Positions 1,625-29,235 of a DNA stretch of 29,235 nucleotides are shown here, piece after piece. Source of the DNA: an uncultured Hyphomicrobiales bacterium (lineage in GTDB: Bacteria; Bacteroidota; Ignavibacteria; Kapaibacteriales; UBA2268); the NCBI GenBank assembly GCA_964386275.1, contig CAYLSY010000001.1, forward strand, positions 1 through 29,235. Direction: 5' to 3'. Position 1 is the first letter of the stretch. Each line of letters opens with the position of its first letter. The position numbers and the translations under genes were made by a program. The notes below the pieces were generated by a model. It had not been told where the DNA came from. It ran no database searches and was given only the letters and a program-made list of their open reading frames with translations.

Positions 1625-1670
1625 AATCAGCAATAATCGCAAATTTCATCGTCTATATTAATTTTTGGCA

Positions 1671-2744: not shown

Positions 2745-2745
2745 G

Positions 2746-13023: not shown

Positions 13024-13083
13024 TTAATTAATCCTTGAAATAATAAAACATATAATATGATTTTTTGACTTTATTTTACATTT

Positions 13084-13335
13084 TTATTTATTTTCAATAG
13101 TAACTCCATTGAACCAAATTTCGCTTTCGCTCAGGTCTAAATCCTCATTCCAAACAACACTGTGCTTATTAGGATGCGCCATATTGAACTGAGCTGGGTC
13201 TTTCAGCTGCGAAAACAATTCGCTTTCTATTAAATGTCCACAATTGTATGCCTTGCGCTCGCCGTTATCGAATTCGACATGCAAAGTGTAGTCAGGCAGA
13301 GCTTCTACGGATTTTATTGTCGGAATTTGCTTCAT
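13084..13335 (-). CDS. DUF2442-family protein (NE0471 N-terminal-like), orphan
   Basis: IKSVEALPDYTLHVEFDNGERKAYN...LFSQLKDP..F......VVWNEDLDL matches the DUF2442 pattern. ATG at 13335 (alternative GTG at 13338). Confidence 0.85.
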   Translation of the reverse strand: MKQIPTIKSVEALPDYTLHVEFDNGERKAYNCGHLIESELFSQLKDPAQFNMAHPNKHSVVWNEDLDLSESEIWFNGVTIENK

Positions 13336-13379
13336 CACTTATTTTAAAACCTTCATTTAAAGACCTACTATCTTAAAAG

Positions 13380-13410
13380 CAAAACTATTCAAAATATTAC
13401 TACTCAGCAA
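13380..13410 (-). promoter_or_regulatory. Possible internal Bacteroidota-type promoter for DUF2442 and the 736-aa gene
   Basis: Minus strand TTG (13410-13408), 20-nt spacer, then TAGTTTTG (13387-13380), matching TTG-N19-21-TAnnTTTG. AT-rich context. Confidence 0.35.
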
Positions 13411-13497
13411 TACGTATAATTACTGAATGAATTTATTTTAATTTTAGCGCTTGATTTATTTTTGATGAAATACAATAAAACTTAAATTCTATTTTAA

Positions 13498-16400
13498 TTA
13501 TTCACCCAGTTCAATAACTCCGTTATTATTTATTAATGCTGAATTTATGACATTTCCCCGAACCATAAGGGCATCTATTCCGTCAATAAAAACTGTTGCG
13601 CCGAGCGAATTTACAAAATTGCTTCTGACAAGCACTTTGCGTGTAACATTTTTTGTGCCAAAATTTGTTGTATATAATAAACCGTAGCCGTTTCCGGTAT
13701 CGGTTAAGTAGTTATAAAACAAATCAGGTACGATAGAAACATCCTGATTGTCGCCATAGAACTCGAAAATACTGGAAATCCCTATGTCATATACGCTATA
13801 ATTAGTAATGACATCAAACAAAGAGTTATTTGTCCCGCCTATCCTCATGGTTGCCCCATTAGCATTTGTCATGGTCCCGGCGCCGGTAATATTTTTTAAA
13901 GTGTATGACACAGCGTCCAACGTTCCGCTTAGGATACTTAAATTCGAGCTGATGTTAATATTTTTATCAATAATAACGGTATTATTTCCCGGCGCGCCGG
14001 AATTATTGATAATCAAAGAGTTTACTGTAGACGGCAAGCCGTTTCCAATGACTTGGTTAGCTGTTCCATTGTATTCGTAAATACCGTTTGTATTAAATTC
14101 TCTTGAAACGCTTGTTAAAATGTTGCCCGTTGTGCCTCCGAGCGCTGAAATGCCTTGCGTAGAGCCGATTCTGAGTGTCGATAGTTCACCAAAAGAGAAA
14201 TAGAGTCCGTTCAATGTGTTAGCGCCGCAATCAAGAGTGCCGGTATTAGCCGCTTCTGTGCCGAGAGCGACTCCGGCGCCGTCGCCAGCCCCGAACGGCG
14301 CATCGACATTAAGTGTAATAATATGGTTACCAACGCCATTAGCGCCGCCGCCGATAACGACGGAATCTTCCGGTTCGTTGGGCCACAATCCCGAACCGAA
14401 AATTTGGGGTCCAAGGTGGTCTTTTTTGTAAGTCCATGAATTCGGGTCATTCCATAACCCATCGCGCAAGCTGTAGAATATTCGCCTGAAAGCCTGTTCG
14501 CTGCCGGCAGTCCAATCTCCGTGCAGGTCTGAATATAGCGCATCGTCATAAGTTTGAAAATTCGGGCTGCCACCAAAATTGAACGAAAAACCATCTGCTA
14601 CGGTAAAAGTTTTCCATCTGCCGCCGTTAGTTTCTTTGATTGGACGCCAGCGGCCGGCTTTAACGAACTCCGTTCCAATAGTGTCTGTTAAATTGAAATT
14701 AAATGTAAGTTTTCCGTTTAATTTTGACGTCATTGTATCGACAACCCAATAACGTTGCAAATAGGATATTTCCGGTGTGGATGAAATCTTGAAATGCGCT
14801 CCCAAATTAGTCGGATGCGAACCCGGCGAAGTCCTGACTCCCATATACCCGCCGACAGCGCCGCTTTGAGCCAAGAAATCGGCTGGAGCATAGCTTTCGG
14901 TCGCTTCATAGAATGAGCCAACCGGGAAAGTATATGTCTTGGGTAATCCGGTTGCATTCATATTCCTTACCAAATATCCGCTTGTCTGGCTTGTCTTGAT
15001 ATATTTACCAGCGCCATAACCAACTATGCCATTTATATTGTCTGCATTTAGAATATAAATACTTGCGCTATCACCTAAGGTGATAAGGTTGTCGTTTGCA
15101 GTAAAATTCAATTGATTATTAACATAAAGATTAGCGTTGGCAGACGCATTTAAGCGATTAACCATCACATTACCACCGCTGTTCATATTCAGAATCAGAT
15201 TATGGAATGGAATCCCCGAGCTGTTGCCGATATTCACATTTTTCGTTCCGCTGCCGGCAAAGGTGATGTTGCTGGCATTGCCGGGATTAAACGTCGCGGC
15301 TCCCCAAGCAGAAATATTTCTATATAAGTTAATATTTCGATTACCGACACTTAAAACTCCGGAATTGCTTACCAAAGAATCACGTATTTTAAGTGTTTGT
15401 GCGCCGGGAAAATTTGAAATTGCTACAATTTGTATCGGATTATCGGCAATTAATGCCGAGATGCTGTCAGGCAAAGCCCTGCCAGTCGTTTGACCATAAT
15501 TAGGGTTGTTAGCATTAAAGATATATCGGCTGACACCGAACGAACGTATTTCCGTTTGAATACCACCGCCGGGCATTCCAACAGGCACAAGACCGTCGGC
15601 TCGCTGCATACCGAGCGTGCAGCTATCTTGCAGCTCGAATGTATTGCCGTAAATCACGTTCGAAACGCCGGTATTTGTCGTATCGAGAATATATAATTCA
15701 CCCGGCGGCAAATTTGCTGGATTTTCAACAATTACCGCCCTTACTTCAATTTGAGGATTCAAACCCGATGGGATATACACTTTTTTTCCATTGCCGATAT
15801 AGACTTTATCTGTCGTTACGAGCAATCCATTGTTAAAACCCGGATAACGGTTTGCCGGAGGAGTATTTTCAATTAAATAATCTGTTAAAGACCATGTATT
15901 AACGTCGTTCCAATATCCGTCGCGATAACTATAAAAACTTTGTCCTTCGGGTTCGGCAAGCAGAAAATCGCCGAAATGTTTGTTTCCAACTGATTTTACC
16001 GTAGAATCAGTTCTTGTTGTTGTATTGGTTATATACCATGCGGCTGGTATGGTATCCCAACCCGGCGTTCGGCGGAATTGCTCTAAGAATGGTAGCGTTA
16101 TATTTAATCCGATTGTGTCTCTCGGCAAAGTGTACTCTAAGGTTAAAGCAAACGAACGTGTCAAGGAATCCAAGACGAATCCGCCTTTATGGTTGATATT
16201 CCAATATCTTTGAATATTATTGTCGATTCTGCCCAAAGGATACAAATTGGTTATATCAGGATGCTGAACGTTATACGAGATTGCCCCGACAAGTCCGGCG
16301 GTGCCGCCGGTACCAGTAGTTTGGAAAATTACTGGACGGTAGCCGTATTCCAAAGTATCGTTACCAATCGGAAATAGCTTTGTAACCTGCCCTGTTTCTA

Positions 16401-19400
16401 TCCATCGATAAAGCCTGCCGTTAATATGTCCGGGACCATTTATAACAATTTCTGCGGCGCTTCCGCCGGAGGGACTGACTTCAACATATTTATTAAATGT
16501 TCTGGAATCGATTAAAGATTTATTTCCTAATGCAAATTCAAGATTATTGCGTACCACAATATTAGAATTGTCCGAAGCATCCAATCCGAGTTGAACCAAA
16601 CCGCTGTCGGGCTTGGCAATCTTCAAATTGTAAAACTCCAATGCTGCGCCAGTCGAATTGAACAGAGTTTGAGTATTACCCGAGCCGAAAAGTTCCAAAG
16701 TGCCTGCGCTCGAAGCAGATAATGTTCCATAGTTAATTAAATCGCCGCCTAAGGCAAGATTCCCTTGTATCTGCATTGTATGATTCACATCAATATAAGC
16801 GTCATTCAGTATTGTATCGAGGCTAATAAAGTGCGTTTGAGCAGCATTTCCGGGCGCGTTCGAAGCATGGAATCCGAAAATAGGCATCGTGCCTTTTAGT
16901 TTTATTGGAACGGCTCCTGCAGCAATGCTCGAATCGCCAGATTGAATAATGCCGCCGCGCATTTTCACTCCCGCAGCAGCATCGACATAATAATCCAAAC
17001 TCGCCTCGGCAGAGCCTTTGGCAACAATAATCCTGCCCCCGTCCATATTGAAAGTCGAACCGGCATTGCGAATGTCGAAGCCGATTCTATCGGCGCGGGT
17101 ATTGCCGATTCGCATAACCCGGGCAATACCGAATGTATCGATAGTAATATTAACTAAGGCTCCATCGGTCAAACGGGTAAAGCAGCCGGCTATATCTATA
17201 CTGCCGGAGAGTATATCAAATTTGCTGCCATCGGAATAAAAGAGACATTCATCCGCATTATTACCAACGATTAGGCTGCCACCATTTAAATAGGTTGTTG
17301 TGTTATAGCTTGCAACGATGTTAGTATCCGAACGCAAAGCGCCAGAGCGAATATCAAAACCGGAGCCGCTTATTATTGTCAAATTAGTATTGCCTTTTGC
17401 AATACACATCGTATCGGCAACCGTGTGACGAAATACGCCGCCGTTGGGATAGAACATGAAATTGGAAACAGTATCCGTTGCCAACGAAAATGTAGAGGAG
17501 GCGTTAATCAATGTATCGGTTAATCCGGTTTTCGTTAAAAAGACCTTAGGCAGTCTCCCCCACTTTCCGTTACCGGAAATTGTCGAGACACTGTCGCCGC
17601 CAAACTTGAGCGCAGTAAAGTTTGTGGCTGATTTATATAGGTTGATACCGTGTCCGGTCGATAGATTGATCAAATCCTGAGAAATTTTAAGAGTATCGTA
17701 ACGGTTTGCAATAGAAGAAGTATCGCCGATATAACCATTGTCTGCGTCGAGGAACAATGTGCGCATTTCGAGCGTTTTTATTGAAGGAGTATCACCAAAT
17801 AGCAGTCTGCCTGCGCCTGCTGCTGGGTTTGTGCCGCCGATTCGCAGCGAATCTATGCTGACATGTGCCGAATCCTTGAATACAATAATATGACCATCGA
17901 TGTTCACAGTATCGTTATTAAACAACATGCCGGGGTAATACGATGCGGCAGTGCCGGAATGCTTCAGTACCGCATCATTCGACCAATTGTATCGATTGTT
18001 CCAAACACCCGACTTAATGCTGTAAAACACGCGACCGTTGAAATAAACCAATGGATGCCCCGCCGTCCAATCGCCGTCGAGCCCAGGTTCTTGAACTACC
18101 GTAATCGGAGACGGCAGCGCAACAGGATTAGTACCCAAATTGATTTCCCAGCCGCCGGGAGTTTTGTGCCGACCGGGAATATACCAGTTGACATCGCCGT
18201 TGATGTCATAAACGCTGTAGCCGAATGTATATGTCGCCGGAAGCGTAGTATCTACAGTTATTCCAGTAGAGCTAACCCGCCAGTATTTGCTTAAAATGTT
18301 TTCGGTTAAGCGCGCAGGATGCTTTTCGGCTTTCAAAAGCAGCTTGATTGCTGCATTGCCGCTGTTTGTGCCTCGAAAATTAAATGATGCCGGATTATAA
18401 ATTGAATCTACTCCGACGGGAAAAGTAAAATTAAATGTTGTGCCTGAAAACTGCTTGGTTATTGTATCATTAAGTGAAATACCATCGACTTGGAACATTC
18501 TTTTACTGCTGAAAGAACCTGCATCAGGCGAAACGCTGCCCGTAGCGTTGAAAGTAAGGGTATTATTCGGATTCAAATATAAATTATTATCGGTGCTGAA
18601 CTTGAATACATTACCGACGGTAATATTATTCTCAAGATACACTTTTTCTGTCGTGGTCGGCTTGTTTATGGTGATTTTATTGAATGTTATGGGCTGAGAG
18701 CCGCGAATTGTGTCGCGCGAATCGCCCTTGAACAAGACTTCGCTGGTTTGGGCGTTGAAGCCGCCGATTGTATCATTGATAAAATCGCCCTTTATACCGA
18801 TTGTATAAGCGCCTGCATTCAAAATGCCGCTGATAATTTTCAACGAATCGGCACAAGTAACGTTTTTCGACAAAGTAACCTGTGGATTGACCGCGCCAGA
18901 GCGTGGCGATTGCACTATGAATGCGCCTACGTTTGCTGGCAAACCGTCGCCGGTGGTTTGTGCCGGCAGTGTATAGTTCGGATTAAAAATACGAATTGAA
19001 TAATCTTCAACTTCGCCGTAAGCAGGATTATCACATACATCTGAACCAGCAGAACTAGTGCTGCGGTACATTTTTACGCGCATTCTTGTCGTTCCGGGCA
19101 TATTACCTGAAGGTACTGTAAATGATCGAGACACAGCGCTTGACGAGGCTGTAGTTGCTGAAAATAATTGTTCGCCCGCATCGGTAAAATCACCATTCAT
19201 ATTGTAGTCTATCCAAGCTATCCAACGTTGATTTCTTGTGGTGCCGAAACCCGGCGTCATTGTTAATGTATAGCTTGAACCTGCATTTAAATTTGCCTGC
19301 TGGGATACATAGTATTCATAAGCCTGCGGGCTGACGCTAGCTCCTGAAGTATTGTCTATGCTGTGGTTTGCGTCAATGCCGGGCAGTTGAATGCGGGAAA

Positions 19401-22400
19401 TCCATTCGGATGAGTTATTGGCACCGGATGGAGTACAAATGCCTGAACCGCCTTCGGTATAAGGCGTAAACGGCGCAGTATATCCTTCGGCAGTATAAAT
19501 GAAGCGATTATCAAGAGTTTGGTCATAATAAGTGTAAGTAATAGGCCAAAGATTGCCTCTAAATGTTCCAATTCCCCTCAAACCATCTAAAGAGCCAACT
19601 TCCAAGGCGCCATTGTTTTCAATGTTGACTCCGAAGCAATAAATAAAATTAGTTCCGGTTGCCAGAGTACCGTTGTTTTCAATATTTAATGTTCTTAAAG
19701 CAGAATAATCGCGTCTATCCGAGCCATTTGTGCGGTTTCCGCTCCCAATGGATTTGTCGAGTACGACCCGCCGTCCGTTTCCAATATATGCAATATCAAA
19801 AAACTGAGTAGGCACGCGGCTTGCTGGCGGACCATCATAATCAACTTCAGACCATGTATTGACATCGAACCAATCGCCGTCTTGGCGCGACCAAAATGTA
19901 GTCGTTCCGGTTTCCAATGCCCTACCGGTTATAAAATCAGCCCAAAGTGTATCAGTATCAATTAGCGTTGAACCGTATGAACTTGCCGGCGCAGCATATA
20001 ACTTCACATTGACATCGCTTCCGGTATAAGTATATGTTCCGGTCGGGCGGTCTGCGCAAATATTAGTTCCGAAATTTGATTGTGTCGTCGTTTTATTAAA
20101 AATATTCCAATCATTATTTGCCCATGAATCAATATCAAAACAGCCCGGTACGGCTCCAAAGCGCAAATCCTGCGGATTTAAGAAAGTTAAATTAATATCC
20201 GTTGTCCTTGTTCCGAGCCTGAAAGTTGAGCCTTGAGGTTTAGTGGTGCGCCAAAATCGTTGTACCAGCCAAGCTGCATCAATTCCTCCGGCAGGCATTG
20301 AACCGAAATTCGGATGTTCACCGTCAACCATCGTTACAGCTAGATAACCCGCTGCTGGCGAACCTCCTGTGCCATTAAATGTTATTGTAATCGGACGATA
20401 GCCAATTAATGAATCCGTTCCAACGTGCCATGTAACGTTCGTTGGGTTTGCCGTGCCAACCCAGCGACGAAGCTGACCGTAAACATGACCCGAATCAGAC
20501 CTTGTCAGAGTTGCGCCGTTGTTGATTTGGATATAATTCGCAAAAGTCGGCGAAACCAATACGCCTTTGTTGCCGCTGCGGAATTGCAACAGGTTCGTTA
20601 TTGTAACCGGATTATCCCGAATAACAAGATTGCCTGCGGTTTTCTGCAAACGCAACTGGTAAAACGTTTGGGCTGCGCTCGATTTAATAGTATCTGCAGT
20701 CGCTCCGTTGAAATCGACGATATAATTATTTGGAGTAAATGCGCCATAATTAATCCAGTTGCCATTCACTGTCAAATTCGAACCGGCAGACAATGTGCCG
20801 CTTTGAATATAAAGGCTGTCGACAACGACAAGATTCGCTTTGTTGAACGTTACGGTATTCGACGCTTTGTTCACTTGCAAAGTGGCTACGGAATCCGGAA
20901 CGGCTTCGTTTGCTTGAGTTTGAGCATTAGTTCCGGTATAAATGAAATGCCCGCGAAAATGGCTGCCGTAATTATAATTGCGCGTCGAAAGCTGAATATT
21001 TCCGCTTCCGGCATTGGTTATGCCCGAAGCATGACCGATACCTAAAGCTCCGTTGCGCTTCAAACGAAATTCGCCTGTGCCGCTGATAACGTTGCTGCCG
21101 CAATATAGCGCTCCAGTTGAGTCTATTGTAACAATACCGGGATATGTTTCGGATAAATTTACATCAAGTGTTATGCTTTTATTGTTACCAATAAAAATAA
21201 GCGGATTACCCTGCGCCAACGGGTCGCTCGGAGCAAAAGCCGCCGGAGGACCGTCGTAGCCTTGTGTTGACCAATTCGCCGCTGTGGATAGATTTCCGCT
21301 ATTAATACTGTAAAAACTATATTGTCCGGGTTCGCCAACTGCTATAGTGCCGAGCGAATCGAGTCTGCGATATTGAACGGTAGAATCAGTAAGTGTTCCA
21401 ATCAACGGTTTAGATAAATACTGCGGTAAAATCCAATTGCCGTTCAAATCAAGCAAGCGAGGTTCGAAAAGTGTCCAGTTTGCACCGCCACGAAGGTCGC
21501 TTGTAGGGACATATTGTATCGTTGCATCATAAGTTCTGGAAAATGCTAAATTAAATGAGCTGCCGGCTGGCTTTGTGATAGACCATTGACGGGCAACGTG
21601 CTTTGAAGAACTCAATGCGCTACCAATGGGCTGAATAACTGTATTTGTTGTATTATCCCACGACAAAGGCGTGCTTCCAACCTGAATAGTATCACTCAAC
21701 ACATTCAAATAACCTGTCGTACCGCCGGTTCCGGTGGTTGTCATCGTCAGCGGAGTGTAGTTATGATTATGCCCGACTTCGAAAACAACGGTCTGAACGC
21801 CGGTTTTGAAAATCTTGCGTAATGAGCCGTCTATATGCCCCGGATTAGCCCCCGGCCTAGTAATTGTAGCTGTCGAATCGAGCTGCAGGTAACGTCCCCG
21901 TGTTCGCAAATTACCTTTGAGAAGCGAGATATTGCCGTTTGCATTAATAAAAATACCGTTATCGGCTGAAGAATAGCCGACGTATGAAGCGCAAACACTA
22001 TCGGGACCGTTTATTATCATGTTATAAAAATACTCGTTTCCTGAAGTGCGAGTCATTGTTTGCTTGCCGGTTCCTTCAAACGAAACGGTAGAATTTCCTG
22101 GCAAGAATGTTCCGCCTTGATTGAGCCAATTGCCCTTTAGCGCTAATAGAGTTGCATTTGGAGCGGTTCTCATCGAAAATTTCGTTAAAGTATCAATAAC
22201 GAAATTGCCGCGAATGCGCATCATGTCATTTGGACGTATATAACCTTCGCCAACAACTTCAACGTGATAAAACGGATTCGCAGAAGTGTCGCGAGACGTA
22301 ATCAAATTCGGTATCAATGGGTCGTTAGAGCTTGTTCGGAAGCGAACGGTATTAGTTCCTGGATTGAAAGAACCACTTATATTTACCCAGTGGCGCTGCA

Positions 22401-25400
22401 CTTCGAGGTTAAAACCATTTGATTCGAACGAAGCGTTATTGTTAATTGTCAAATCGTTCAAAATTATGACGGGAGTCGTTCCCGAACCAAGCAAACGCTT
22501 GGTTCCAGCGCTATCCAGCTTCAAATTAAAATATGACAGATTGAATACAGTATCAGCAGGAGCAAGCGGACGACAAGGAATGTCTTGGGTGGAACCGTTT
22601 TTATTGAAAACAACAGTCGAACCGTTTGTTTGGAAGCGCTGGCTGACGGGACCGGTAAATGTCAAATCTGATATATCCAAACTATTGCCGATACGTATTT
22701 CGCCTTGCGATTGAAGCGTTACAACACCAGAGACCGAACCGCTAATTTTCAAGTCGTAATAACGATTAACTGCAGGGGTAAGCGCAGAACTGGGTATAAG
22801 CGGATTGGCAATTCCGTGGAATGTTACCCTTCCGGCATTAAAAGTAGGTGCAGCATAATTCGCCGGAAAGCCGGTTCGCAGCAAAAGTTCACCGCCGGTC
22901 ATTTTAAGCGTTCGATTAGAGCTGCCGCCATCCATTGAGTAGCTGCCGACATCAAGGCAGCCTTGATTAATGACAATCGAATCATTGATTATGATAGCCT
23001 TGCTTAACTTTACGGTGTCAGTAAGCGCTCCGCCTTGAATTTTCACTACATTCACCGGCGATGGCAAGGCGTCTCCGGTTGTTTGAAGCGCCGCAGTCGA
23101 ATCGATAAACCGATAAGTCCCTCGTTGAGTAAAGCTACGCACAATCGTTTGAACAGCGCCGCTGTCCTGCTTTGTCGTTGCAAGCACGATTCCTTGCGGA
23201 TGGGCAATATCAAGTTCGCCGCCGTCATTGGCTAAAATAGTTGAACCTACTCTGAGAGTATCGCCGTGCATAAAGTTGCTGCCGAGGATACGAAGCCTGC
23301 CGGTTTTTGTAACGGTATTGACGACGCCTTTATCGACTATTACTGCATTGAAAGGCGCTGTGGCAGCCGAAACCGTAACGGTGTCACGAATGAAAACACG
23401 GTCGCTGCGTTTATTAGGCGCAGTGTTCGACGGATTGCCCGTGTATTCGAAACCGAGTTTAGACCACGTCGATGGATCGTTGTAGTCGCCGTTTTTTATG
23501 CTGTAATAATATGCTCTGCCTATGTTTTCTTCGCCAGCTACCCAATCACCGTTTAAAGAATCAGCCATTTGGGAATAAAAAAATCGAGCGCCCCAATTGA
23601 CTATATTGTTTGTCCTGCCGGGACCGACCTGCCAATATCCCAAAGGGTCGGGATATGATGGATGGAAATTCCAAACAAGATAATCAGCATCGGAGCCACG
23701 CACTTCTGTTTCGTGATAATAAAAAAACGCATCTAAAGAACGTATGGGTTTGAAAGTTAAATTCTCAGTCTTCATAACCCAATATTTTGTCAAAGAAGTA
23801 TTATTGGTTTCAACTGCAGGATGCTCCATAGGAATAGCCTTACATGAAACTGAAGCGTTCGGATAATACATAACGCTGTCCGGATGAAAATATACTGTTG
23901 ATGGCGTAAATACTTTGATAATGGCGGTATCTGAACCGGTTATTTGTCTTCCATAAGTTCCTATAGGGAAAAACAGATTTATAGGCGGTATCGGAGGAGT
24001 TATGTCTGGAGTAATCAATTTTTTAATTCTGCCGCAATCGGCAGTCCAACTCGGATTGAAAATCATCTTTTTGTTGTTAAAAGAAGTATCTGTTGTGGCA
24101 GCAGTAGAATAAATATCTCCGTTTGTGCCTATTGTCAAAGAATCAAGGTTAATATTAAATAATGTATTTGATACAAGACGCAAATTGCCGTTTACCGTAA
24201 CCGATGTGTCGAGAACGACTTGGTTTGTTGTATCGGAGCCGGCAATTTGTTTATTAATAGTCAAATTATTAAATGCGGTAGTAACAGCGCCTTGAATTCG
24301 TTGCTCAGGCAGTCCATTCATTGTAACGGTAGCAGCTCCGGCAGTGAAAGCCAACAAATCCGTTGTTGAGTTATTTATCCAATTGCCTCCGAGCGTAATA
24401 TTTCTATTGTTAGCGTCAAATCTGCCAGCGCCTGTTCCAGCTATTGTAATATTGCTTACAACGCTTAAATCATTGTTTATAATCCGAGCGATAGGGCTGT
24501 TCGTGCCAGTCATCAGCAAATTTCCGATTGCATGAGTTGTATTCAATCGATAAGTTTCAGCGTTATTACGGGCGTCGATTTTTACCGTACCGCCGGTTAC
24601 GTTCGAAGCTCCTGCAACTGAGTAGAACTCACCGTTTGCAAATGCGGAGGCTTGGCTCTTCAATACAATTTCGCCTGCTGAAGTATAAAAGGATGAGCCA
24701 GCCGAACCTAAATCGAACAAAGCGCGAGTTGCGCTTGTGTTTTGCGAGCCGTAACCAAGATTGATTGTTCCGCCGCTTTGAGTAAAACGCAGCGAATCGC
24801 TGTCGCTAGCATTACGCGAAAGGCGCGCATTAACGTTTAGCGTACCGCCTTCGACGGTTAATTGCGCCGCCGAAGAACCCGATTCATATAGTAAATTATT
24901 TTCGTTTGCGCCTGCACCAATGTTGATTGTTCCGTTCGTTAATCGAAGCAAGCCCTGAAGAAGCAAACTGGCATTTTGACCGGTGAAAATCACGTTTTCG
25001 TTATCGAGCCACAGCCCGGAATTGCTGTTTATTGTGTAATTTAATATCGAAAAGAAATTGTTTGTGAATGAAAATGTGCCGCCGATATGAAAAATACCCC
25101 TCTCAAGCGATAAAAACGGATTATTTGCCGAAAAAGCCGTCGAAAGCACATCCAATCTGTCATTTGCTGATGTTTTATTTAAAATAATATCGTAAAATTC
25201 GGTTGTCGTTCCAGTTCCGGAAATTTGTGCATTGCCGCTACCAATAAAAGAAACAGTCCCTTGAAGCGAAAATTGGTCACCATTATTAGTCCAGTTGCCG
25301 ATTATCGTAACATCGCCGTTTATATGGAAAATGCCGTTGTTCGTTAGCGAGCCGTTAATTTTAACTATTGCATCAGGACGTATTGAAACAACCGCATTAG

Positions 25401-25491
25401 GGCGGATATTGACTAAGCTCTGCCCAAATACTGCATTGAGTGCCAAGAATAGTAAAAATAGGATATATATATGTAATCTATTGAATGTCAT
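13498..25491 (-). CDS. Giant 3997-aa secreted repetitive beta-solenoid protein with six cap/solenoid/connector units and a GEVED domain
   Basis: Signal peptide ends AVFG-Q. Six cap motifs of type FYS...G.W....TW (codons near 23514, 21321, 19902, 18033, 15942, 14484), recurrent W.N.G.F...TV.F.G...Q rungs, and six connectors with F.VG/Y.P/HP/R.W motifs. Ends INNNGVIELGE with no recognisable CTD or beta-barrel. Confidence 0.9.
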   Translation of the reverse strand: MTFNRLHIYILFLLFLALNAVFGQSLVNIRPNAVVSIRPDAIVKINGSLTNNGIFHINGDVTIIGNWTNNGDQFSLQGTVSFIGSGNAQISGTGTTTEFYDIILNKTSANDRLDVLSTAFSANNPFLSLERGIFHIGGTFSFTNNFFSILNYTINSNSGLWLDNENVIFTGQNASLLLQGLLRLTNGTINIGAGANENNLLYESGSSAAQLTVEGGTLNVNARLSRNASDSDSLRFTQSGGTINLGYGSQNTSATRALFDLGSAGSSFYTSAGEIVLKSQASAFANGEFYSVAGASNVTGGTVKIDARNNAETYRLNTTHAIGNLLMTGTNSPIARIINNDLSVVSNITIAGTGAGRFDANNRNITLGGNWINNSTTDLLAFTAGAATVTMNGLPEQRIQGAVTTAFNNLTINKQIAGSDTTNQVVLDTSVTVNGNLRLVSNTLFNINLDSLTIGTNGDIYSTAATTDTSFNNKKMIFNPSWTADCGRIKKLITPDITPPIPPINLFFPIGTYGRQITGSDTAIIKVFTPSTVYFHPDSVMYYPNASVSCKAIPMEHPAVETNNTSLTKYWVMKTENLTFKPIRSLDAFFYYHETEVRGSDADYLVWNFHPSYPDPLGYWQVGPGRTNNIVNWGARFFYSQMADSLNGDWVAGEENIGRAYYYSIKNGDYNDPSTWSKLGFEYTGNPSNTAPNKRSDRVFIRDTVTVSAATAPFNAVIVDKGVVNTVTKTGRLRILGSNFMHGDTLRVGSTILANDGGELDIAHPQGIVLATTKQDSGAVQTIVRSFTQRGTYRFIDSTAALQTTGDALPSPVNVVKIQGGALTDTVKLSKAIIINDSIVINQGCLDVGSYSMDGGSSNRTLKMTGGELLLRTGFPANYAAPTFNAGRVTFHGIANPLIPSSALTPAVNRYYDLKISGSVSGVVTLQSQGEIRIGNSLDISDLTFTGPVSQRFQTNGSTVVFNKNGSTQDIPCRPLAPADTVFNLSYFNLKLDSAGTKRLLGSGTTPVIILNDLTINNNASFESNGFNLEVQRHWVNISGSFNPGTNTVRFRTSSNDPLIPNLITSRDTSANPFYHVEVVGEGYIRPNDMMRIRGNFVIDTLTKFSMRTAPNATLLALKGNWLNQGGTFLPGNSTVSFEGTGKQTMTRTSGNEYFYNMIINGPDSVCASYVGYSSADNGIFINANGNISLLKGNLRTRGRYLQLDSTATITRPGANPGHIDGSLRKIFKTGVQTVVFEVGHNHNYTPLTMTTTGTGGTTGYLNVLSDTIQVGSTPLSWDNTTNTVIQPIGSALSSSKHVARQWSITKPAGSSFNLAFSRTYDATIQYVPTSDLRGGANWTLFEPRLLDLNGNWILPQYLSKPLIGTLTDSTVQYRRLDSLGTIAVGEPGQYSFYSINSGNLSTAANWSTQGYDGPPAAFAPSDPLAQGNPLIFIGNNKSITLDVNLSETYPGIVTIDSTGALYCGSNVISGTGEFRLKRNGALGIGHASGITNAGSGNIQLSTRNYNYGSHFRGHFIYTGTNAQTQANEAVPDSVATLQVNKASNTVTFNKANLVVVDSLYIQSGTLSAGSNLTVNGNWINYGAFTPNNYIVDFNGATADTIKSSAAQTFYQLRLQKTAGNLVIRDNPVTITNLLQFRSGNKGVLVSPTFANYIQINNGATLTRSDSGHVYGQLRRWVGTANPTNVTWHVGTDSLIGYRPITITFNGTGGSPAAGYLAVTMVDGEHPNFGSMPAGGIDAAWLVQRFWRTTKPQGSTFRLGTRTTDINLTFLNPQDLRFGAVPGCFDIDSWANNDWNIFNKTTTQSNFGTNICADRPTGTYTYTGSDVNVKLYAAPASSYGSTLIDTDTLWADFITGRALETGTTTFWSRQDGDWFDVNTWSEVDYDGPPASRVPTQFFDIAYIGNGRRVVLDKSIGSGNRTNGSDRRDYSALRTLNIENNGTLATGTNFIYCFGVNIENNGALEVGSLDGLRGIGTFRGNLWPITYTYYDQTLDNRFIYTAEGYTAPFTPYTEGGSGICTPSGANNSSEWISRIQLPGIDANHSIDNTSGASVSPQAYEYYVSQQANLNAGSSYTLTMTPGFGTTRNQRWIAWIDYNMNGDFTDAGEQLFSATTASSSAVSRSFTVPSGNMPGTTRMRVKMYRSTSSAGSDVCDNPAYGEVEDYSIRIFNPNYTLPAQTTGDGLPANVGAFIVQSPRSGAVNPQVTLSKNVTCADSLKIISGILNAGAYTIGIKGDFINDTIGGFNAQTSEVLFKGDSRDTIRGSQPITFNKITINKPTTTEKVYLENNITVGNVFKFSTDNNLYLNPNNTLTFNATGSVSPDAGSFSSKRMFQVDGISLNDTITKQFSGTTFNFTFPVGVDSIYNPASFNFRGTNSGNAAIKLLLKAEKHPARLTENILSKYWRVSSTGITVDTTLPATYTFGYSVYDINGDVNWYIPGRHKTPGGWEINLGTNPVALPSPITVVQEPGLDGDWTAGHPLVYFNGRVFYSIKSGVWNNRYNWSNDAVLKHSGTAASYYPGMLFNNDTVNIDGHIIVFKDSAHVSIDSLRIGGTNPAAGAGRLLFGDTPSIKTLEMRTLFLDADNGYIGDTSSIANRYDTLKISQDLINLSTGHGINLYKSATNFTALKFGGDSVSTISGNGKWGRLPKVFLTKTGLTDTLINASSTFSLATDTVSNFMFYPNGGVFRHTVADTMCIAKGNTNLTIISGSGFDIRSGALRSDTNIVASYNTTTYLNGGSLIVGNNADECLFYSDGSKFDILSGSIDIAGCFTRLTDGALVNITIDTFGIARVMRIGNTRADRIGFDIRNAGSTFNMDGGRIIVAKGSAEASLDYYVDAAAGVKMRGGIIQSGDSSIAAGAVPIKLKGTMPIFGFHASNAPGNAAQTHFISLDTILNDAYIDVNHTMQIQGNLALGGDLINYGTLSASSAGTLELFGSGNTQTLFNSTGAALEFYNLKIAKPDSGLVQLGLDASDNSNIVVRNNLEFALGNKSLIDSRTFNKYVEVSPSGGSAAEIVINGPGHINGRLYRWIETGQVTKLFPIGNDTLEYGYRPVIFQTTGTGGTAGLVGAISYNVQHPDITNLYPLGRIDNNIQRYWNINHKGGFVLDSLTRSFALTLEYTLPRDTIGLNITLPFLEQFRRTPGWDTIPAAWYITNTTTRTDSTVKSVGNKHFGDFLLAEPEGQSFYSYRDGYWNDVNTWSLTDYLIENTPPANRYPGFNNGLLVTTDKVYIGNGKKVYIPSGLNPQIEVRAVIVENPANLPPGELYILDTTNTGVSNVIYGNTFELQDSCTLGMQRADGLVPVGMPGGGIQTEIRSFGVSRYIFNANNPNYGQTTGRALPDSISALIADNPIQIVAISNFPGAQTLKIRDSLVSNSGVLSVGNRNINLYRNISAWGAATFNPGNASNITFAGSGTKNVNIGNSSGIPFHNLILNMNSGGNVMVNRLNASANANLYVNNQLNFTANDNLITLGDSASIYILNADNINGIVGYGAGKYIKTSQTSGYLVRNMNATGLPKTYTFPVGSFYEATESYAPADFLAQSGAVGGYMGVRTSPGSHPTNLGAHFKISSTPEISYLQRYWVVDTMTSKLNGKLTFNFNLTDTIGTEFVKAGRWRPIKETNGGRWKTFTVADGFSFNFGGSPNFQTYDDALYSDLHGDWTAGSEQAFRRIFYSLRDGLWNDPNSWTYKKDHLGPQIFGSGLWPNEPEDSVVIGGGANGVGNHIITLNVDAPFGAGDGAGVALGTEAANTGTLDCGANTLNGLYFSFGELSTLRIGSTQGISALGGTTGNILTSVSREFNTNGIYEYNGTANQVIGNGLPSTVNSLIINNSGAPGNNTVIIDKNINISSNLSILSGTLDAVSYTLKNITGAGTMTNANGATMRIGGTNNSLFDVITNYSVYDIGISSIFEFYGDNQDVSIVPDLFYNYLTDTGNGYGLLYTTNFGTKNVTRKVLVRSNFVNSLGATVFIDGIDALMVRGNVINSALINNNGVIELGE
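18985..19440 (-). other. GEVED domain inside the 3997-aa protein
   Basis: CTPSGANNSSEWISRI...AWIDYNMNGDFTDAGE...FTVP...TTRMRV...YGEVEDY; the namesake motif is encoded at 19000-19017. Confidence 0.92.
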
Positions 25492-25506
25492 TAAATTATA
25501 TCGTCA

Positions 25507-28500
25507 TTAACTTAGTTTGTGTATTGAGACGTATGTTTTAGCTTTACCTGTAACAAGACTCTGAACAGAAGTCCATAAATGAAATACTCTTACTTCCAAC
25601 CATTCACCTGCATTTAAATAAATAATATCTGAAATAACCGGAGCATTATTTGTAGGAATCAATGGGGTTTGTGAAGAACCTGATTCATTTAAAGCAAGGT
25701 TATTTCCATATGAGTAATAAGTTTCTGTATTATCAGAATTAGAATATATTGCTATAGAACAAAACCTATTCGCTGATGCAGTACCTGAGCCACTTAAATT
25801 AAATTCAACTCTTGAATTAACTTGGTAATATCCCGCTTGCTTTGCAGTAAACCTACTAGTAGTAATATCGAACTCTTCCTGTTCATCGAAATTCTCAACA
25901 TTAAAATTCACTTTAGTCCATGTATTTATAGGTATTGATTGTTCTGTATTTAAATACGCCCTTACTCTGCTTTGATGTTTCAAATCCACAATACCTTCAC
26001 TGCCTTCTTCGGCATGAATAATAACTTGCTCTTCGCCTTTTATTTTGAATACAAGCGGATTTGTGTTAGTCGGCTCCGATGAACCCAAAAAGTCGCTTTC
26101 AGTGATTTCATTCCCTCCGAGCAACCACGCTGAACCGCCGCCGCCGCTGTTCGCTTCTGTAGTGATTGTTTCCCAGTCGTCGTTTCCACGTATTTTCATT
26201 CTTCTTTCAGTCGAGCTGTAGTAAATCATACCGGGAACCGGGTCGGCAGGTTCATTCTCCAAGGGTACCATAAAGATAGCAATTGGGTCTATTGTTCCGG
26301 TAACAATCAAATCGCCGTTGATGCGTACATCACCGAGCATTTCTACGTTAATAGAATCGTCATCAAAAGTTGTAACTCCAAGTCCAACCCTGCCCTCGAC
26401 AAATAAGCCGTCATCAGGCGCGGTTACAGAGCCTGCATAACCCGAACCAATAACAACCCCGCCGGCAACATCAAGCAAGTTCACAGGAGATGTTTCTCCG
26501 ATTCCTATATTAGTTCCATCATTTATCAATAAATCTGACGCCACCCAGCCTGTGCCGTCATGTCTTAAAGTTTGCTCTTCTGCGCCGCTCGGTAAAGCAA
26601 CGTCAACCCAGCTTAGAAAGCCGGACAAGCCAGATGTGGAAAGCACTTGGCCGGAATCGCCTTGAGTAATTGGCAATGTATATGTATATGTATCAGCCAT
26701 GCTTGGGTCTGATAAAAACGATACACCACCAGTTGCATTTTCATTATATACCGATAGATTACCTAATACCATAAAGGAATTTGAAGCATTCTCCCAAATC
26801 AGATTCGGACTGCCAGTAATTTGGTGGTTCGAAGACCAAAATGTAACTTGATTCATTACCGGTGCGCCGCTTGTGTCCGCTTTTTCATTAAATAAATTCC
26901 AGTCATCGCTCGAAAGATAACCTGCGCTTGCGTTTCCAGCTTGCGCCACTTCTATAGTAACGCCTGTTCCGATTACTGAACCTTCGCCGCCGGTTATTGT
27001 AAGAACACTCGAATTGGTTTCTTCCAAATTGCCAGTAGTTAATGCATCAAGTTTATTATTAAAAGTGTTCCAGTCATCGCTCGAAAGCGCTCCCGTTGTG
27101 GTTGCAGAAGCCAAACCAAGTGATAATTCCTGAACATCAAGGCTCAATCCGTTAGCTGTTCCAAGTGTAACGGCAGGATGAGATTCCAATTCCAGAGCAT
27201 CTACTGAGCCTTGCAATTTTCCAAAGGCATCTAAAATATTATCAGTAGCCGTAATATCGCCAGTTGATGTAATAAAACCGGTTAAAATTTTGCCTATTAC
27301 TGCGCTATTGCTCAAAGTAACAACTCCTGCATTCGAAATTGTCGCTTCGCCGCTCATCGAAACCGAAGCGGCTAAATTAGATGCGTCGCCAACCAAAATA
27401 TTTCCGCTGTTCAACGCAGAACCAACAGGCGACACTCCAGTAATAGTCGTATTTCCAGCCGCTGTCAAGCGTCCCTGCTCATCGACGGTAAAAGTCGCCA
27501 CTTCCGTTGCGCTGCCATAGCTGCCGGCAGAAACAGCGGTATTGGCAAGATTCAATGTAGCCGAAAAACCGTCGCCTAAGGCATCTGCGGCTATGCCGCC
27601 GCTTAAACCTGTCCCGGCAGTTATTGTCGCTGTCTGATTGCCTTCAACAGCAGAGCCTGAGGATGTTCCGTAAGCCACATCCCAAGTCGTTGCTGCAGAA
27701 CCGTCATAGTTTGAGCCGGTTAGCCCTGTGCCTCGAGTTAAAAGCGCATGTGTATGGTCGCTACGTGAGGCTGTATTTGCCGCGCCGCTCCCGGCGAAAT
27801 CGACATCAATAGTCAAATTGCCGTCGTCGGACCCTGCATCAGTAAAACTAATGCCGTTTCCTTCGACTAAAACTCGATTGTTTGATAGATTAGCAGCAGT
27901 TGAAAAAGTAATGAGCGGCGATGAAGATATATTCGAAGCGTTTTGGTCAACATAATCTTTCGTTGTCAAAGTAGTCGGTCCGTCGCCTACGCCTGTCGAA
28001 GCGCTTGTAGCCTTGTTTATTATATTTAGCGAGGAAAAAGTCGGCGAAGAAGTTGCGGCAATATCTTGCGGAGTTGATAGCGTGATTGAACCTGCGGCGT
28101 TAGCCACATTAACCTGATTTGCAGTACCAGTCAGTGTCGCTAATGTATAATTAGTACCATTGCCAATTAATAATTGACCATTCGTGGGAGTAGTCGATAA
28201 ATTTGTGCCGCCGTTAGCAACAGGCAGAACTCCGCTGACTTCCGCCGTAGCCAAATCAACTGCATCGCTAGCGCTGCCGGAACCGACAAAGCGATTAGCT
28301 TGGATGTAGCCAGCACCGGTCGGTGCTAATGAACCTTGAACCAATAAGTTTGCAGTATTTGTGCCATCAGTAATTTGGCTAAATGGCACAGTAACATTCG
28401 TTAGTGAATTTGTCCATGATAATACACCGGAGCCATTGTTCATCAAAAGCGAGTTTGCGGCTCCTTGAGCGATTGGCAGCGTCCAGTCGATGTATGCTGA

Positions 28501-29172: not shown

Positions 29173-29235
29173 TACAAGCTCCAATTTTTTTTATTATATT
29201 AATATTACCTTAAATATTATCTTAGCAAGATTGCA

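Follow-up and report, generated by a model that had tools for sequence, protein, structure and literature searches.

We wondered what kind of protein is encoded by P0001, a giant gene on the minus strand of a 29,235-nucleotide stretch of DNA (the window), and what that protein could do for its host. The host is an uncultured Bacteroidota of the Ignavibacteria/Kapabacteria type from anaerobic-digester metagenomes; the P0001 sequence is present in DNA runs only, and its source is a digester biofilm/granule community. Giant beta-helical surface proteins are already known, and a first-pass annotation of the window had read P0001 as a jointed rod of capped solenoid units of varying length that could set the distance between a cell and an adhesin.

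P0001 (13498..25491, minus strand) is a single uninterrupted ORF of 3,997 codons plus a stop, and its orthologues are 3,800-4,800 aa long and 33-45% identical to it. The product is rich in Gly, Thr, Asn and Ser and low in Cys. When translation is begun at the ATG at 25491, 15 codons upstream of the start in the public gene call, the protein gains a proper signal peptide: by eye, a basic n-region and a hydrophobic core are followed by AVFG and then QS, so that the predicted Sec signal peptide occupies aa 1-23 (25423..25491, minus strand) and Gln is the first mature residue. The orthologues also have signal-peptide-like N-termini, followed by strands of the Q/E-x-LVN type. At the other end, P0001 finishes in a helix strand, N-x-G-x-I-E-[IL]-G-x, that is conserved to the last residues and kept in 53 orthologues.

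The caps that led to the jointed-rod reading are real. Each of the six strings was located in the protein, at aa 662, 1393, 1866, 2489, 3186 and 3672, with the spacings originally given (731, 473, 623, 697 and 486 aa), and they share the 16-aa consensus F-Y-S-x-x-x-G-x-W-x-D-P-x-T-W-S. A loose version of this pattern matched P0001 six times, compared with a mean of 0.047 and a maximum of 2 in 2,000 shuffled versions of it. An uncapped segment of 661 aa precedes the first cap, and the last cap opens a connector-free tail of 326 aa, within two residues of the earlier figures (659 and about 328).

We then asked if the segments between the caps are related to one another. Whole-length self-BLASTP of P0001 returned the identity match only, and unit-versus-unit BLASTP required that the protein first be cut at its caps. 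The units so obtained aligned with each other at 24-31% identity, with E values that included 2e-18 (the lowest), 3e-18 and 6e-12. Profile HMMs built from the orthologues detected the cap at six of six sites and the connector ahead of five of them; the connector of the N-terminal segment gave a weak HMM match, yet it could be aligned with the other connectors. At the DNA level, direct repeats in the gene reach 45 nt at most; the longest falls on the cap codons, with 62-76% identity, and no tandem DNA repeats were found in the gene. The first-pass annotation had noted no long DNA identity between units and had proposed old duplications; both points hold. The best match of each P0001 unit in seven orthologues is the unit of the same index. 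Judged by these alignments, the units are true paralogues.

To see what the units look like as folded chains, we turned to two AlphaFold2 models, both of them all-beta. One (mde249af2fb3c, pLDDT 85.4) holds the unit 1 connector, as model residues 1-213, together with unit 2, and the other (m500e46010b1a, pLDDT 89.5) holds units 4 and 5; at pTM values of 0.57-0.68, the way in which their domains are oriented to one another is uncertain. Each modelled unit begins with the cap, continues as a right-handed parallel beta-helix and ends in a beta-sandwich of ~200 aa, after which three residues lead to the next cap, a gap of the same size in both models. The helices of P0001 have from ~7 to ~17 turns. 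As modelled, then, the units are beta-helical rods parted by compact beta-sandwiches, which bears out the earlier picture of solenoid units with connectors.

On the minus strand, the segments follow one another from the N-terminus as follows. Unit 0 (23509..25422, aa 24-661), traced by HMM and alignment, is an uncapped beta-helix, in which aa 42-113 and 340-475 match the rungs of the helix HMM, together with the first connector (aa ~470-661); in orthologues this unit is 328 to 776 aa long. Unit 1 (21316..23508, aa 662-1392) consists of a cap at 662-677, a long helix recognised by HMM and a connector at 1185-1391 that is contained in one of the models. Unit 2 (19897..21315, aa 1393-1865) has, in its model, a cap, a ~20-strand helix and a connector at 1641-1864. 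In unit 3 (18028..19896, aa 1866-2488), the HMM match to the helix that follows the cap comes in two pieces, aa 1866-2002 and 2177-2300, split at 2002/2177 by an insert, and the connector lies at ~2342-2488. Unit 4 (15937..18027, aa 2489-3185) is modelled as a cap, a ~50-strand helix (aa ~2489-3010) and a connector (~2981-3182), and unit 5 (14479..15936, aa 3186-3671), from HMM and model, as a cap, a ~20-strand helix and a connector at ~3500-3671. The tail, unit 6 (13501..14478, aa 3672-3997), is a cap and a helix (HMM match at aa 3672-3902) without a connector, closed by the conserved terminal strand.

The differences in unit length had been ascribed to the number of solenoid rungs. This is so for unit 4, with ~50 strands compared with ~20 in units 2 and 5 (DSSP on the AlphaFold2 models), and HMM matches point to many rungs in unit 1 as well. 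It is not so for unit 3, whose excess length is an inserted segment of ~175 aa that bears a GEVED domain (PF20009; 18994..19224, minus strand, aa 2090-2166). The Pfam match to this domain covers profile positions 2-77 of 78, with an E value of 2e-19 and a score (70.6 bits) that exceeds the cut-off of 24.4. Among orthologues, the same site in unit 3 carries zero, one or two GEVED copies.

Structural superposition on solved members places the helices in the right-handed parallel beta-helix (pectate-lyase-like) fold. The unit 4 helix (model residues 1-450) superposes on the passenger of Vag8 with a Z of 18.0 over 352 residues (rmsd 4.2 Å), on UpaB with a Z of 16.1, on TSP3 with a Z of ~16, and on pertactin, TibA, tailspikes and AlgE4 with Z values of 14-16; in all, 85 chains match it at a Z of 8 or more. 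Beta-helix matches to the unit 2 helix have Z values of 9-9.6, and the unit 5 helix matches pectin methylesterases at a Z of ~10. The left-handed helices of LpxA and LpxD superpose on the P0001 helix at an rmsd of ~12 Å only. In Swiss-Prot, autotransporter adhesins (rOmpB, rOmpA, YpjA and TibA among them) head the fold matches, and T9SS cargo of Bacteroidota, which is secreted or placed on the surface, supplies the closest shapes in the ESM Atlas and AFDB. An ESM Atlas feature search returned only Bacteroidota clusters without names, Foldseek with a multi-domain model found nothing in the PDB at an E value of 1e-3 or better, and PDB sequence searches with whole P0001, the connector profile and the cap profile gave no useful match.

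The connector resembles, if weakly, the ZU5 and GAIN domains. Two independently modelled connectors both returned ZU5, GAIN and MYDGF: the connector aligns with 121 of the 149 residues of ZU5-ANK (rmsd 3.2 Å, Z 8.2), that of unit 4 matches ankyrin-B ZU5 at a Z of 8.8, and matches to the GAIN domains of BAI3 and CD97 have Z values of 7.2-7.8. Foldseek assigned probabilities of 0.9-0.99 to adhesion-GPCR GAIN domains and MYDGF, with E values that are not significant. The sandwiches of ZU5, UPA, GAIN and MYDGF bear a weak likeness to the P0001 connector in fold, with no sequence similarity.

The order of parts in a P0001 unit recalls the "TMEM2H" arrangement of TMEM2, CEMIP and fibrocystin, in which a G8 domain, a PbH1 helix and a beta-sandwich domain X follow one another. 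The six cap regions of P0001 gave no match to Pfam G8 (PF10162) even at an E value of 10. Among cap-led segments of orthologues, 5 of 74 match Pfam G8 (best E 4.6e-8), with 23.2 bits for unit 3 of P0068 and 26.7 bits for P0016 against a gathering score of 22.9, and the matches begin ~45 residues past the first residue of the cap, as expected of a helix start. These matches hint, weakly, that the cap may open a divergent G8-like helix start. The module order agrees with the TMEM2 type, but TMEM2 and CEMIP are absent among the listed top matches in the PDB and in the Swiss-Prot part of AFDB, in searches whose multi-domain models weaken single-module matches; the one G8 protein listed, from Dictyostelium, ranks 16th (E 0.12). 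Membership of P0001 in the TMEM2 module family is therefore unsupported by the fold ranking. Modules of the TMEM2H type take in accessory sandwich or lectin domains without a break in the helix, and fibrocystin has two modules in tandem (PMC10206443; bioRxiv 10.64898/2026.10.19.758525). P0001 differs from these proteins in that it is bacterial, has six modules and lacks a membrane helix, and its sandwich looks like ZU5/GAIN, in contrast to domain X, which has been described as having no counterpart among known folds.

If the number of units set the reach of the protein, this number would be expected to vary among orthologues. We found ~50 orthologue clusters, from metagenome genomes of Ignavibacteria and Kapabacteria. 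Nearly all of the ~50 full-length orthologues counted have six caps, with their spacing conserved (a few have five or seven caps), and 30 have identical lengths unit by unit. Within the family to which the host belongs, a full-length copy is present in 4 of the 6 other genomes searched. With six caps nearly always kept and each unit orthologous to the unit of the same number, the plan is fixed rather than tunable, and unit number does not vary in such a way as to adjust a distance. The cap-helix-sandwich module itself reaches much further: it occurs in 3,491 protein clusters, the longest protein having 7,481 aa, and many of these clusters are giant proteins with T9SS-type tails.

We next examined the genes around P0001. 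In six loci, the giant is kept together with a tail-fibre-like trimer protein, three exported proteins and an OmpA-family protein; the last, a peptidoglycan-binding protein, is present in all six. The trimer protein of the window, P0002 (25507..29184, minus strand; 1,225 aa), lies upstream of the giant, 15 nt from its start, and is an exported, tail-fibre-like protein with a weakly C1q-like C-terminus. Precomputed hits to Pfam PF26696 (PTL_trimer) are found for its copy in a longer assembly and for its counterparts in five orthologous loci, and it is homologous to those in L001 and L002 with E values of 1e-11 to 2e-32. On the other side of the giant, a small DUF2442 gene (13084..13338, minus strand; PF10387, E 8.6e-10) separates it from the next cluster gene; this small gene is found in this organism only, and is missing at the corresponding site in L001-L005. 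The three exported proteins are then encoded in succession, all on the minus strand. P0042 (10813..13023; 736 aa) shares its C-terminal ending with the giant, carries one cap-like motif around aa 558 and gives a weak match to the connector HMM (iE 0.0015). P0043 (8449..10602; 717 aa) has a Ca-loop/dockerin-like motif near its C-terminus and orthologues in L001 and L002 at 33-41% identity. P0044 (7141..8436; 431 aa), with orthologues at 34-37% identity, has a weak T9SS type-A C-terminal signal (TIGR04183, E 0.023; PF18962, E 0.043; both below the cut-off). Because the module HMMs of the giant barely detect the neighbouring proteins, we do not claim that these are built from the same units. Literature searches that covered GEVED, Ignavibacteria, Kapabacteria and PTL_trimer turned up nothing on P0001 or its cluster.

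How might such a protein reach the cell surface? T9SS cargo carries a C-terminal sorting domain of ~70-100 aa, of type A or type B; Pfam and NCBIfam searches at E 0.1 found neither (PF18962/TIGR04183, PF13585/TIGR04131) in P0001. T9SS cargo does exist in relatives, for instance a WD40 neighbour in L001 (E 5e-9). Type V secretion is recognised by a C-terminal 12-strand barrel or, in its two-partner form, by a TPS domain at the N-terminus and a gene for the partner TpsB. Searches of Pfam and NCBIfam found no autotransporter barrel and no Haemagg_act/TPS family in P0001, and none of the six loci has a TpsB-like gene. The same two databases gave no RTX family match and no lipobox. The giant adhesins of the RTX/T1SS class have C-terminal nonapeptide calcium-binding repeats, an uncleaved T1SS signal, no Sec peptide and adjoining ABC/MFP/TolC genes; P0001, with a Sec-type signal peptide and no RTX match, does not belong among them, and the HlyD/AcrB/OEP genes that adjoin it run on the opposite strand, make up an RND efflux set and are not kept beside the orthologues. 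Since the searches brought up neither a signal for export across the outer membrane nor an anchor, we infer the surface location of P0001 from its relatives only.

Two groups of known proteins can be compared with P0001. The best structural matches of P0001 are the passengers of autotransporter and two-partner systems (Vag8, UpaB, pertactin, TibA, Ag43, rOmpB, EtpA and HMW1), right-handed parallel beta-helix surface adhesins or spacers with which it has no detectable sequence similarity. Such passengers are one continuous helix with a C-terminal barrel or an N-terminal TPS domain, whereas P0001 alternates seven helices with sandwiches and has neither domain. Giant adhesins such as MpIBP, the LapA-type RTX proteins, SprB and other Bacteroidota T9SS giants resemble P0001 in that they run to thousands of residues, are exported and all-beta and have a proposed extender role, and the RIV beta-helix of MpIBP is a good fold match (Z 13). 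However, the extenders of giant adhesins are many near-identical tandem Ig-like repeats in variable copy number, in contrast to the six old, non-interchangeable units of P0001 in their fixed number, and P0001 lacks the RTX repeats, T1SS signal and T9SS C-terminal domain of the RTX and T9SS giants.

Taken with the predicted Sec signal, these comparisons make it plausible that P0001 is a Sec-exported, all-beta structural protein. It may well act as the shaft of a surface fibre or adhesin, the likeliest of the roles considered, at or beyond the outer membrane, together with the products of its conserved neighbours. The protein would form a long segmented shaft, which we estimate very roughly at 60-80 nm if extended, from which the GEVED sandwich would be held out sideways at unit 3, and which could work together with the tail-fibre-like trimer protein, the three exported proteins and the OmpA-family protein. 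A more specific proposal, which we offer tentatively and regard as improbable as it stands, is that the cluster encodes an envelope-anchored heteromeric fibre of Ignavibacteria and Kapabacteria, exported by a route that does without the outer-membrane sorting signals known so far. The giant would then be its shaft, with the uncapped end of the N-terminal helix and the conserved C-terminal strand N-x-G-x-I-E-I-G as stacking or recognition surfaces for the neighbouring proteins.

Alternatively, P0001 could be released as a scaffold of the extracellular matrix or of an envelope layer, such as a biofilm matrix or an S-layer-like sheet, rather than forming a cell-anchored fibre; we consider this unlikely. 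The exported segmented rod would in that case bind polymers or other cells with no attachment at one end, which is consistent with the lack of an anchor signal of known type, with the fit of the GEVED domain and the beta-helices to glycan or matrix binding, and with a source in a biofilm/granule community. Weak long-range fold matches to the S-layer protein RsaA (Z 7.2-7.5) point the same way, but they are poor in quality, with an rmsd of 24 Å, and the constant presence of the OmpA-family peptidoglycan-binding protein and the other exported partners in the cluster suggests an envelope-attached assembly instead.

The beta-helix fold is nearly equally common to polysaccharide lyases, hydrolases and epimerases, so the fold alone cannot separate a structural role from an enzymatic one. 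P0001 could accordingly be a multi-catalytic polysaccharide enzyme, with its helices as lyase, hydrolase or epimerase modules, its sandwiches as spacers and GEVED as a carbohydrate-binding module. The fold scores for AlgE4 (Z 15.9), AlgG (15.0), tailspike depolymerases (16.2) and GH110, PL6 and polygalacturonases (13) would agree with this, as would the conservation of each unit individually across orthologues, as if each had its own job. Moreover, TMEM2 and CEMIP, eukaryotic G8-led helices, have been linked to hyaluronan breakdown, although TMEM2 had no detectable activity in vitro (PMC10206443). Against an enzyme, Pfam and NCBIfam recognise no family of glycoside hydrolases, lyases or esterases anywhere along P0001, PDB sequence searches, profiles included, gave no match, and the invariant helix columns are mostly Gly, Trp, Pro, Leu and Phe, with Asp isolated. 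We think it quite unlikely that P0001 is such an enzyme.

That P0001 is a self-processing polyprotein, in which, in the manner of FIIND, PIDD or GAIN, the sandwich would promote cleavage directly ahead of the cap's nearly invariant Ser/Thr, and the six helix modules would be released or nicked and held together non-covalently, is highly improbable: the two independently modelled connectors do best match ZU5 and GAIN, sandwiches with relatives that cleave themselves at the C-terminal end, and the sandwich is always followed by aromatic-aromatic-Ser/Thr, with Ser invariant in caps 3-6 (alignments of 19 and 28 sequences), but self-cleavage also calls for a C-terminal H-F-S (ZU5) or H-L-S/T (GAIN GPS), and we set it aside because the junction consensus, G-D-F-x-x-G-E-P-x(3-4)-[FY]-[FYW]-[ST], has no His and places Phe or Tyr two residues before the Ser, the turn in the place of the GAIN cleavage site has G-D-[FW] after it and so no nucleophile, cap 1 has Ala at the Ser position in one orthologue, the fold scores (Z 7-8.8) are middling by the tool's own scale, and a structural role of the cap strand can account for the conserved Ser.

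What sets P0001 apart from the giants already known is that seven separately started helices are strung through ZU5/GAIN-like sandwiches, that the six-cap plan is fixed, with unit-by-unit orthology across the whole lineage, and that it bears no signal for export or anchoring that can be recognised. A weak link, by way of G8, leads from it to TMEM2, CEMIP and fibrocystin, whose G8-led helices are poorly understood. Because the cap-helix-sandwich module has no Pfam family and yet is found in ~3,500 clusters, defining it would annotate many "hypothetical" surface proteins of Bacteroidota. If the conserved cluster builds one appendage, this would be a new surface organelle in abundant uncultured digester and sediment bacteria.

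P0001, the giant protein of this contig (3,997 aa), is encoded by an unbroken ORF on the minus strand that runs from 25491 to 13498. The window is an entire 29,235-bp contig of a MAG of 2.57 Mb in 409 contigs that is 86% complete, within which no second copy of P0001 was found, and its sequence is present in the reads of anaerobic-digester metagenomes. The public gene call (3,982 aa) omits the first 15 codons, counted from the ATG at 25491 (window 25447-25491, minus strand). We consider the ATG at 25491 the preferable start because the public one would cut off most of the signal peptide. G+C content falls to 0.35 at window 25001-26000 and to 0.34 at 13001-14000, against 0.43-0.47 for the rest of the cluster. 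The first dip spans the start of the giant together with the C-terminal, C1q-like stretch of the fibre gene upstream of it; the second spans the AT-rich gap beyond the giant.

The first-pass annotation had described six units in this gene, each opening with a conserved cap. All six of the cap strings it quoted were found in P0001, at aa 662, 1393, 1866, 2489, 3186 and 3672, and the cap-to-cap distances (731, 473, 623, 697 and 486 aa) are as it gave them. The first cap is preceded by 661 aa and, counted from the last cap, 326 aa remain. A cap pattern kept loose on purpose matched P0001 six times, against a mean of 0.047 matches per shuffle over 2,000 shuffles, and 338 caps from 57 proteins yielded the consensus F-Y-S-[RI]-x-[SDN]-G-[ND]-W-x-D-P-x-T-W-S. 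When the protein was cut at its caps, the units did align with one another in pairwise BLASTP, with E down to 2e-18 and identities of 24-31%. At the DNA level, the longest direct repeat in the giant is only 45 nt, lies over three caps and is 62-76% identical, and a search for tandem repeats found none. The unit duplications are therefore old, as had been proposed. A further motif, G-x-I-Q-T-x-x-R-x-[FY] followed by aromatics and then Q-x-x-G-x-x-L-P, was seen at aa ~1500-1530 and at the equivalent places of units 1, 5 and 6. Most units retain this motif although their overall identity is ~25%, and in unit 3 a GEVED insert sits between its two halves. The motif may serve for binding or as a structural arm.

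HMMs based on aligned orthologues split each unit into the cap, a helix core of ~250 aa and a connector of ~210 aa. The connectors of units 1 to 5 lie at aa 1185-1391, 1641-1864, ~2342-2488, ~2981-3182 and ~3500-3671, and the N-terminal segment has its own at aa ~470-661. When aligned, these six connectors share the motifs G-x-I-x-G-x-L-R, F-x-V-G, G-x-G-G-T-x-G, H-P, R-x-W and P-x-G-S-x-F, as well as G-D-F-x-x-G-E-P immediately ahead of the cap. Two AlphaFold2 models built from orthologue alignments, mde249af2fb3c (aa 1180-1965, pLDDT 85.4, pTM 0.68) and m500e46010b1a (aa 2489-3686, pLDDT 89.5, pTM 0.57), are confident and all-beta. Their superposition on known structures identifies the region from the cap onward as a right-handed parallel beta-helix. 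For the unit 4 helix, Z was 18.0 against the Vag8 passenger (352 residues aligned), 16 against UpaB, the CBA120 tailspike TSP3 and AlgE4, and 14 against pertactin and TibA; the helices of units 2 and 5 reached Z 9-10. Because the superpositions start at the first cap residue, the cap is part of the helix domain. For the connector, the models show a beta-sandwich, and two copies modelled independently gave the same relatives, namely ankyrin ZU5 (Z 7.0-8.8; 121/149 residues aligned with ZU5-ANK at an rmsd of 3.2 A) and the GAIN domains of BAI3 and CD97 (Z 7.2-7.8). Foldseek assigned MYDGF and adhesion-GPCR GAIN domains probabilities of 0.9-0.99 with non-significant E-values. Since the connector scores are middling by the fold-comparison tool's own guidance, we call the modelled fold "ZU5/GAIN-like" and claim no membership. 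In both models, the last connector strand is followed after just three residues by the F-Y-S strand that opens the next cap.

Unit length had been attributed to the number of helix rungs, which accounts for units 1 and 4 and fails for unit 3. By DSSP, about 20 strands lie between cap and connector in each of units 2 and 5 and about 50 in unit 4, whose length (697 aa) is thus due to a long helix. For unit 1, additional rung-type HMM matches at aa 1008-1161 point the same way. In unit 3, the HMM helix match is broken at aa 2002/2177 by an insert of ~175 aa containing a GEVED domain (PF20009, aa 2090-2166, 70.6 bits). Among orthologues, this unit is 487 aa long where GEVED is absent, about 630 aa where it occurs once and about 780 aa where it occurs twice.

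Pfam and NCBIfam matched nothing in P0001 besides GEVED, and its own cap regions do not match Pfam G8 even at E 10. Among the orthologues, 5 of 74 cap-led segments gave a G8 match that begins about 45 residues past the cap, the best at E 4.6e-8; the score was 23.2 bits (cut-off 22.9) for unit 3 of the orthologous protein P0068 and 26.7 bits for P0016, another such protein. In the crystal structure of TMEM2, a continuous right-handed beta-helix begins with G8 and has sandwich and lectin domains inserted into it; after the helix comes a large sandwich, "domain X" (PMC10206443). Fibrocystin has been modelled with two TMEM2-type modules in tandem (bioRxiv 10.64898/2026.10.19.758525). In a P0001 unit the parts follow one another as they do in TMEM2, but TMEM2 and CEMIP are not among the fold matches listed for our models. 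We regard the TMEM2-type module as the closest analogue, with a possible distant relationship rather than membership.

A word-indexed search returned about 25 full-length orthologues (3,800-4,800 aa, 33-45% identity), of which those bearing names are called "GEVED domain-containing protein" in Ignavibacteria or Kapabacteria MAGs. An exhaustive profile search reached 3,491 protein clusters at E <= 1e-3, 1,668 at 1e-10 and 190 at 1e-30; the longest members have 7,481 aa, and as many as 34 stretches of one protein match. Six is the cap count of nearly all full-length orthologues (five or seven in a few), and their unit lengths are near-constant at about 710, 500, 630 or 780, 700 and 467 aa, with a tail of about 320 aa; the sole length-variable part is the uncapped N-terminal segment (328-776 aa). 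This constancy leaves unsupported the earlier idea that unit number tunes a distance. In almost all of seven orthologues, the best match of each P0001 unit was the same-numbered unit (130-830 bits, versus 40-100 bits for other units), the exceptions being the tails of two short-tailed orthologues. It follows that the six-unit plan is older than the divergence of these lineages and that each unit is under separate constraint. Extender-type adhesins, in contrast, have near-identical repeats in variable copy number. Across 300 genomes sampled phylum-wide, full-length copies are confined to the window's own family, where 4 of the 6 other genomes searched have one. In another family, f28, 26 of 49 genomes encode single-cap proteins of ~1,215-1,250 aa, whose ORFs match the cap and helix start at E about 1e-30 to 1e-37 (e.g. 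G108:C1:1818547-1819107). This ~1,220-aa protein may be a one-unit relative, and is worth characterising because some f28 genomes are complete.

The giant starts 15 nt past the stop of P0002, a 1,225-aa exported protein that has tail-fibre-like motifs and a C-terminus weakly like C1q. The giant is followed on its own strand by a small DUF2442 gene and then by genes for exported proteins of 736, 717 and 431 aa, in which Pfam found no family. The other strand (window 425-7138, plus) has xseA together with an RND efflux operon for a HlyD-type adaptor, an AcrB-type pump and an outer-membrane factor, both reading towards the cluster and neither kept beside the orthologues. Six loci, that of the window's organism on a 367-kb contig and five orthologous ones, have a core gene order in common: NAD synthase; a LuxR-type response regulator; a PTL_trimer protein of 182-1,225 aa; the giant; proteins of ~720-850, ~680-760 and ~431-442 aa; usually a WD40 protein whose T9SS tail is genuine (E 5e-9); an OmpA-family protein; and a response regulator with a CHASE kinase. 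The window's organism differs in having the OmpA-family gene upstream, and the product of this gene also has a weak PD40 match. The neighbours are true orthologues between loci (E 1e-11 to 5e-155), and they bear a marginal resemblance to the giant's modules. The DUF2442 gene (13084-13338, minus) between the giant and the 736-aa gene occurs in the window's organism only, and in one orthologous locus the fibre gene is separated from the giant by a DUF2281 and PIN pair (L004:9390-9985); small toxin-antitoxin-like genes appear to have been inserted into the cluster's intergenic gaps.

The giant ends in N-x-G-x-I-E-[IL]-G-x, an ending that is conserved across 53 orthologues and turns up again at the C-terminus of the 736-aa protein's family; the giant (13501-13545, minus) and the 736-aa neighbour (10813-13023, minus) share the end motif N-x-G-x-I-[EL]-[IL]-G-[QE]. 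The same motif was seen at the C-terminus of many module-bearing library proteins of 600-1,300 aa (P0094, P0097, P0108, P0117, P0159 and others); many distant module-bearing proteins end instead in T9SS-type tails. Near its C-terminus, the 717-aa protein has a Ca-loop or dockerin-like motif, D-I-N-G-D-G-I-I-N-N-D-D (8449-8700, minus), and in an ESM Atlas shape neighbour of the giant's module 27% of cluster members have Dockerin_1. The 431-aa protein (7141-8436, minus) has a sub-threshold T9SS type-A tail (E 0.02-0.04), and its last strand, A-V-V-K-x-Q-L-[IV]-R, is strongly conserved among orthologues. Gln apparently comes first after the predicted signal peptide in all five cluster proteins (25423-25491, 29080-29184, 12940-13023, 10500-10602 and 8370-8436, all minus), which fits the Bacteroidetes "Q-rule", a rule stated not to hold across the whole FCB group (PMC5837995).

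The analyses establish the architecture of P0001 and its conservation; its function is inferred. The best reading of P0001, to which we give about an even chance, is the shaft of a segmented surface fibre or adhesin. It draws on the presence of a Sec signal peptide, on helix matches of adhesin type, on the closest structural clusters, which are Bacteroidota T9SS cargo, and on the conserved envelope-related neighbours; Pfam and NCBIfam found no T9SS, type V or T1SS features in P0001 itself. A beta-helix rises about 4.8 A per turn, and from this, the strand counts and about 3-4 nm per sandwich we estimate that P0001 would be roughly 60-80 nm long if extended. The jointed rod of the first-pass annotation is thus structurally reasonable, shorn of distance tuning by unit number and of rungs as the source of all length differences. 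That P0001 is released as a matrix or layer scaffold seems unlikely to us. Somewhat less probable again is a multi-enzyme acting on polysaccharides, with which the helix fold is compatible but for which neither a catalytic family nor a conserved charged cluster speaks. Self-cleavage at the ZU5/GAIN-like junctions is highly improbable, as the cleavage-motif test failed there. On the shaft reading, the sequence comparisons and models point to P0001 as probably a giant beta-helical surface protein, of a known kind, made of a widespread, undescribed module within a conserved gene cluster.
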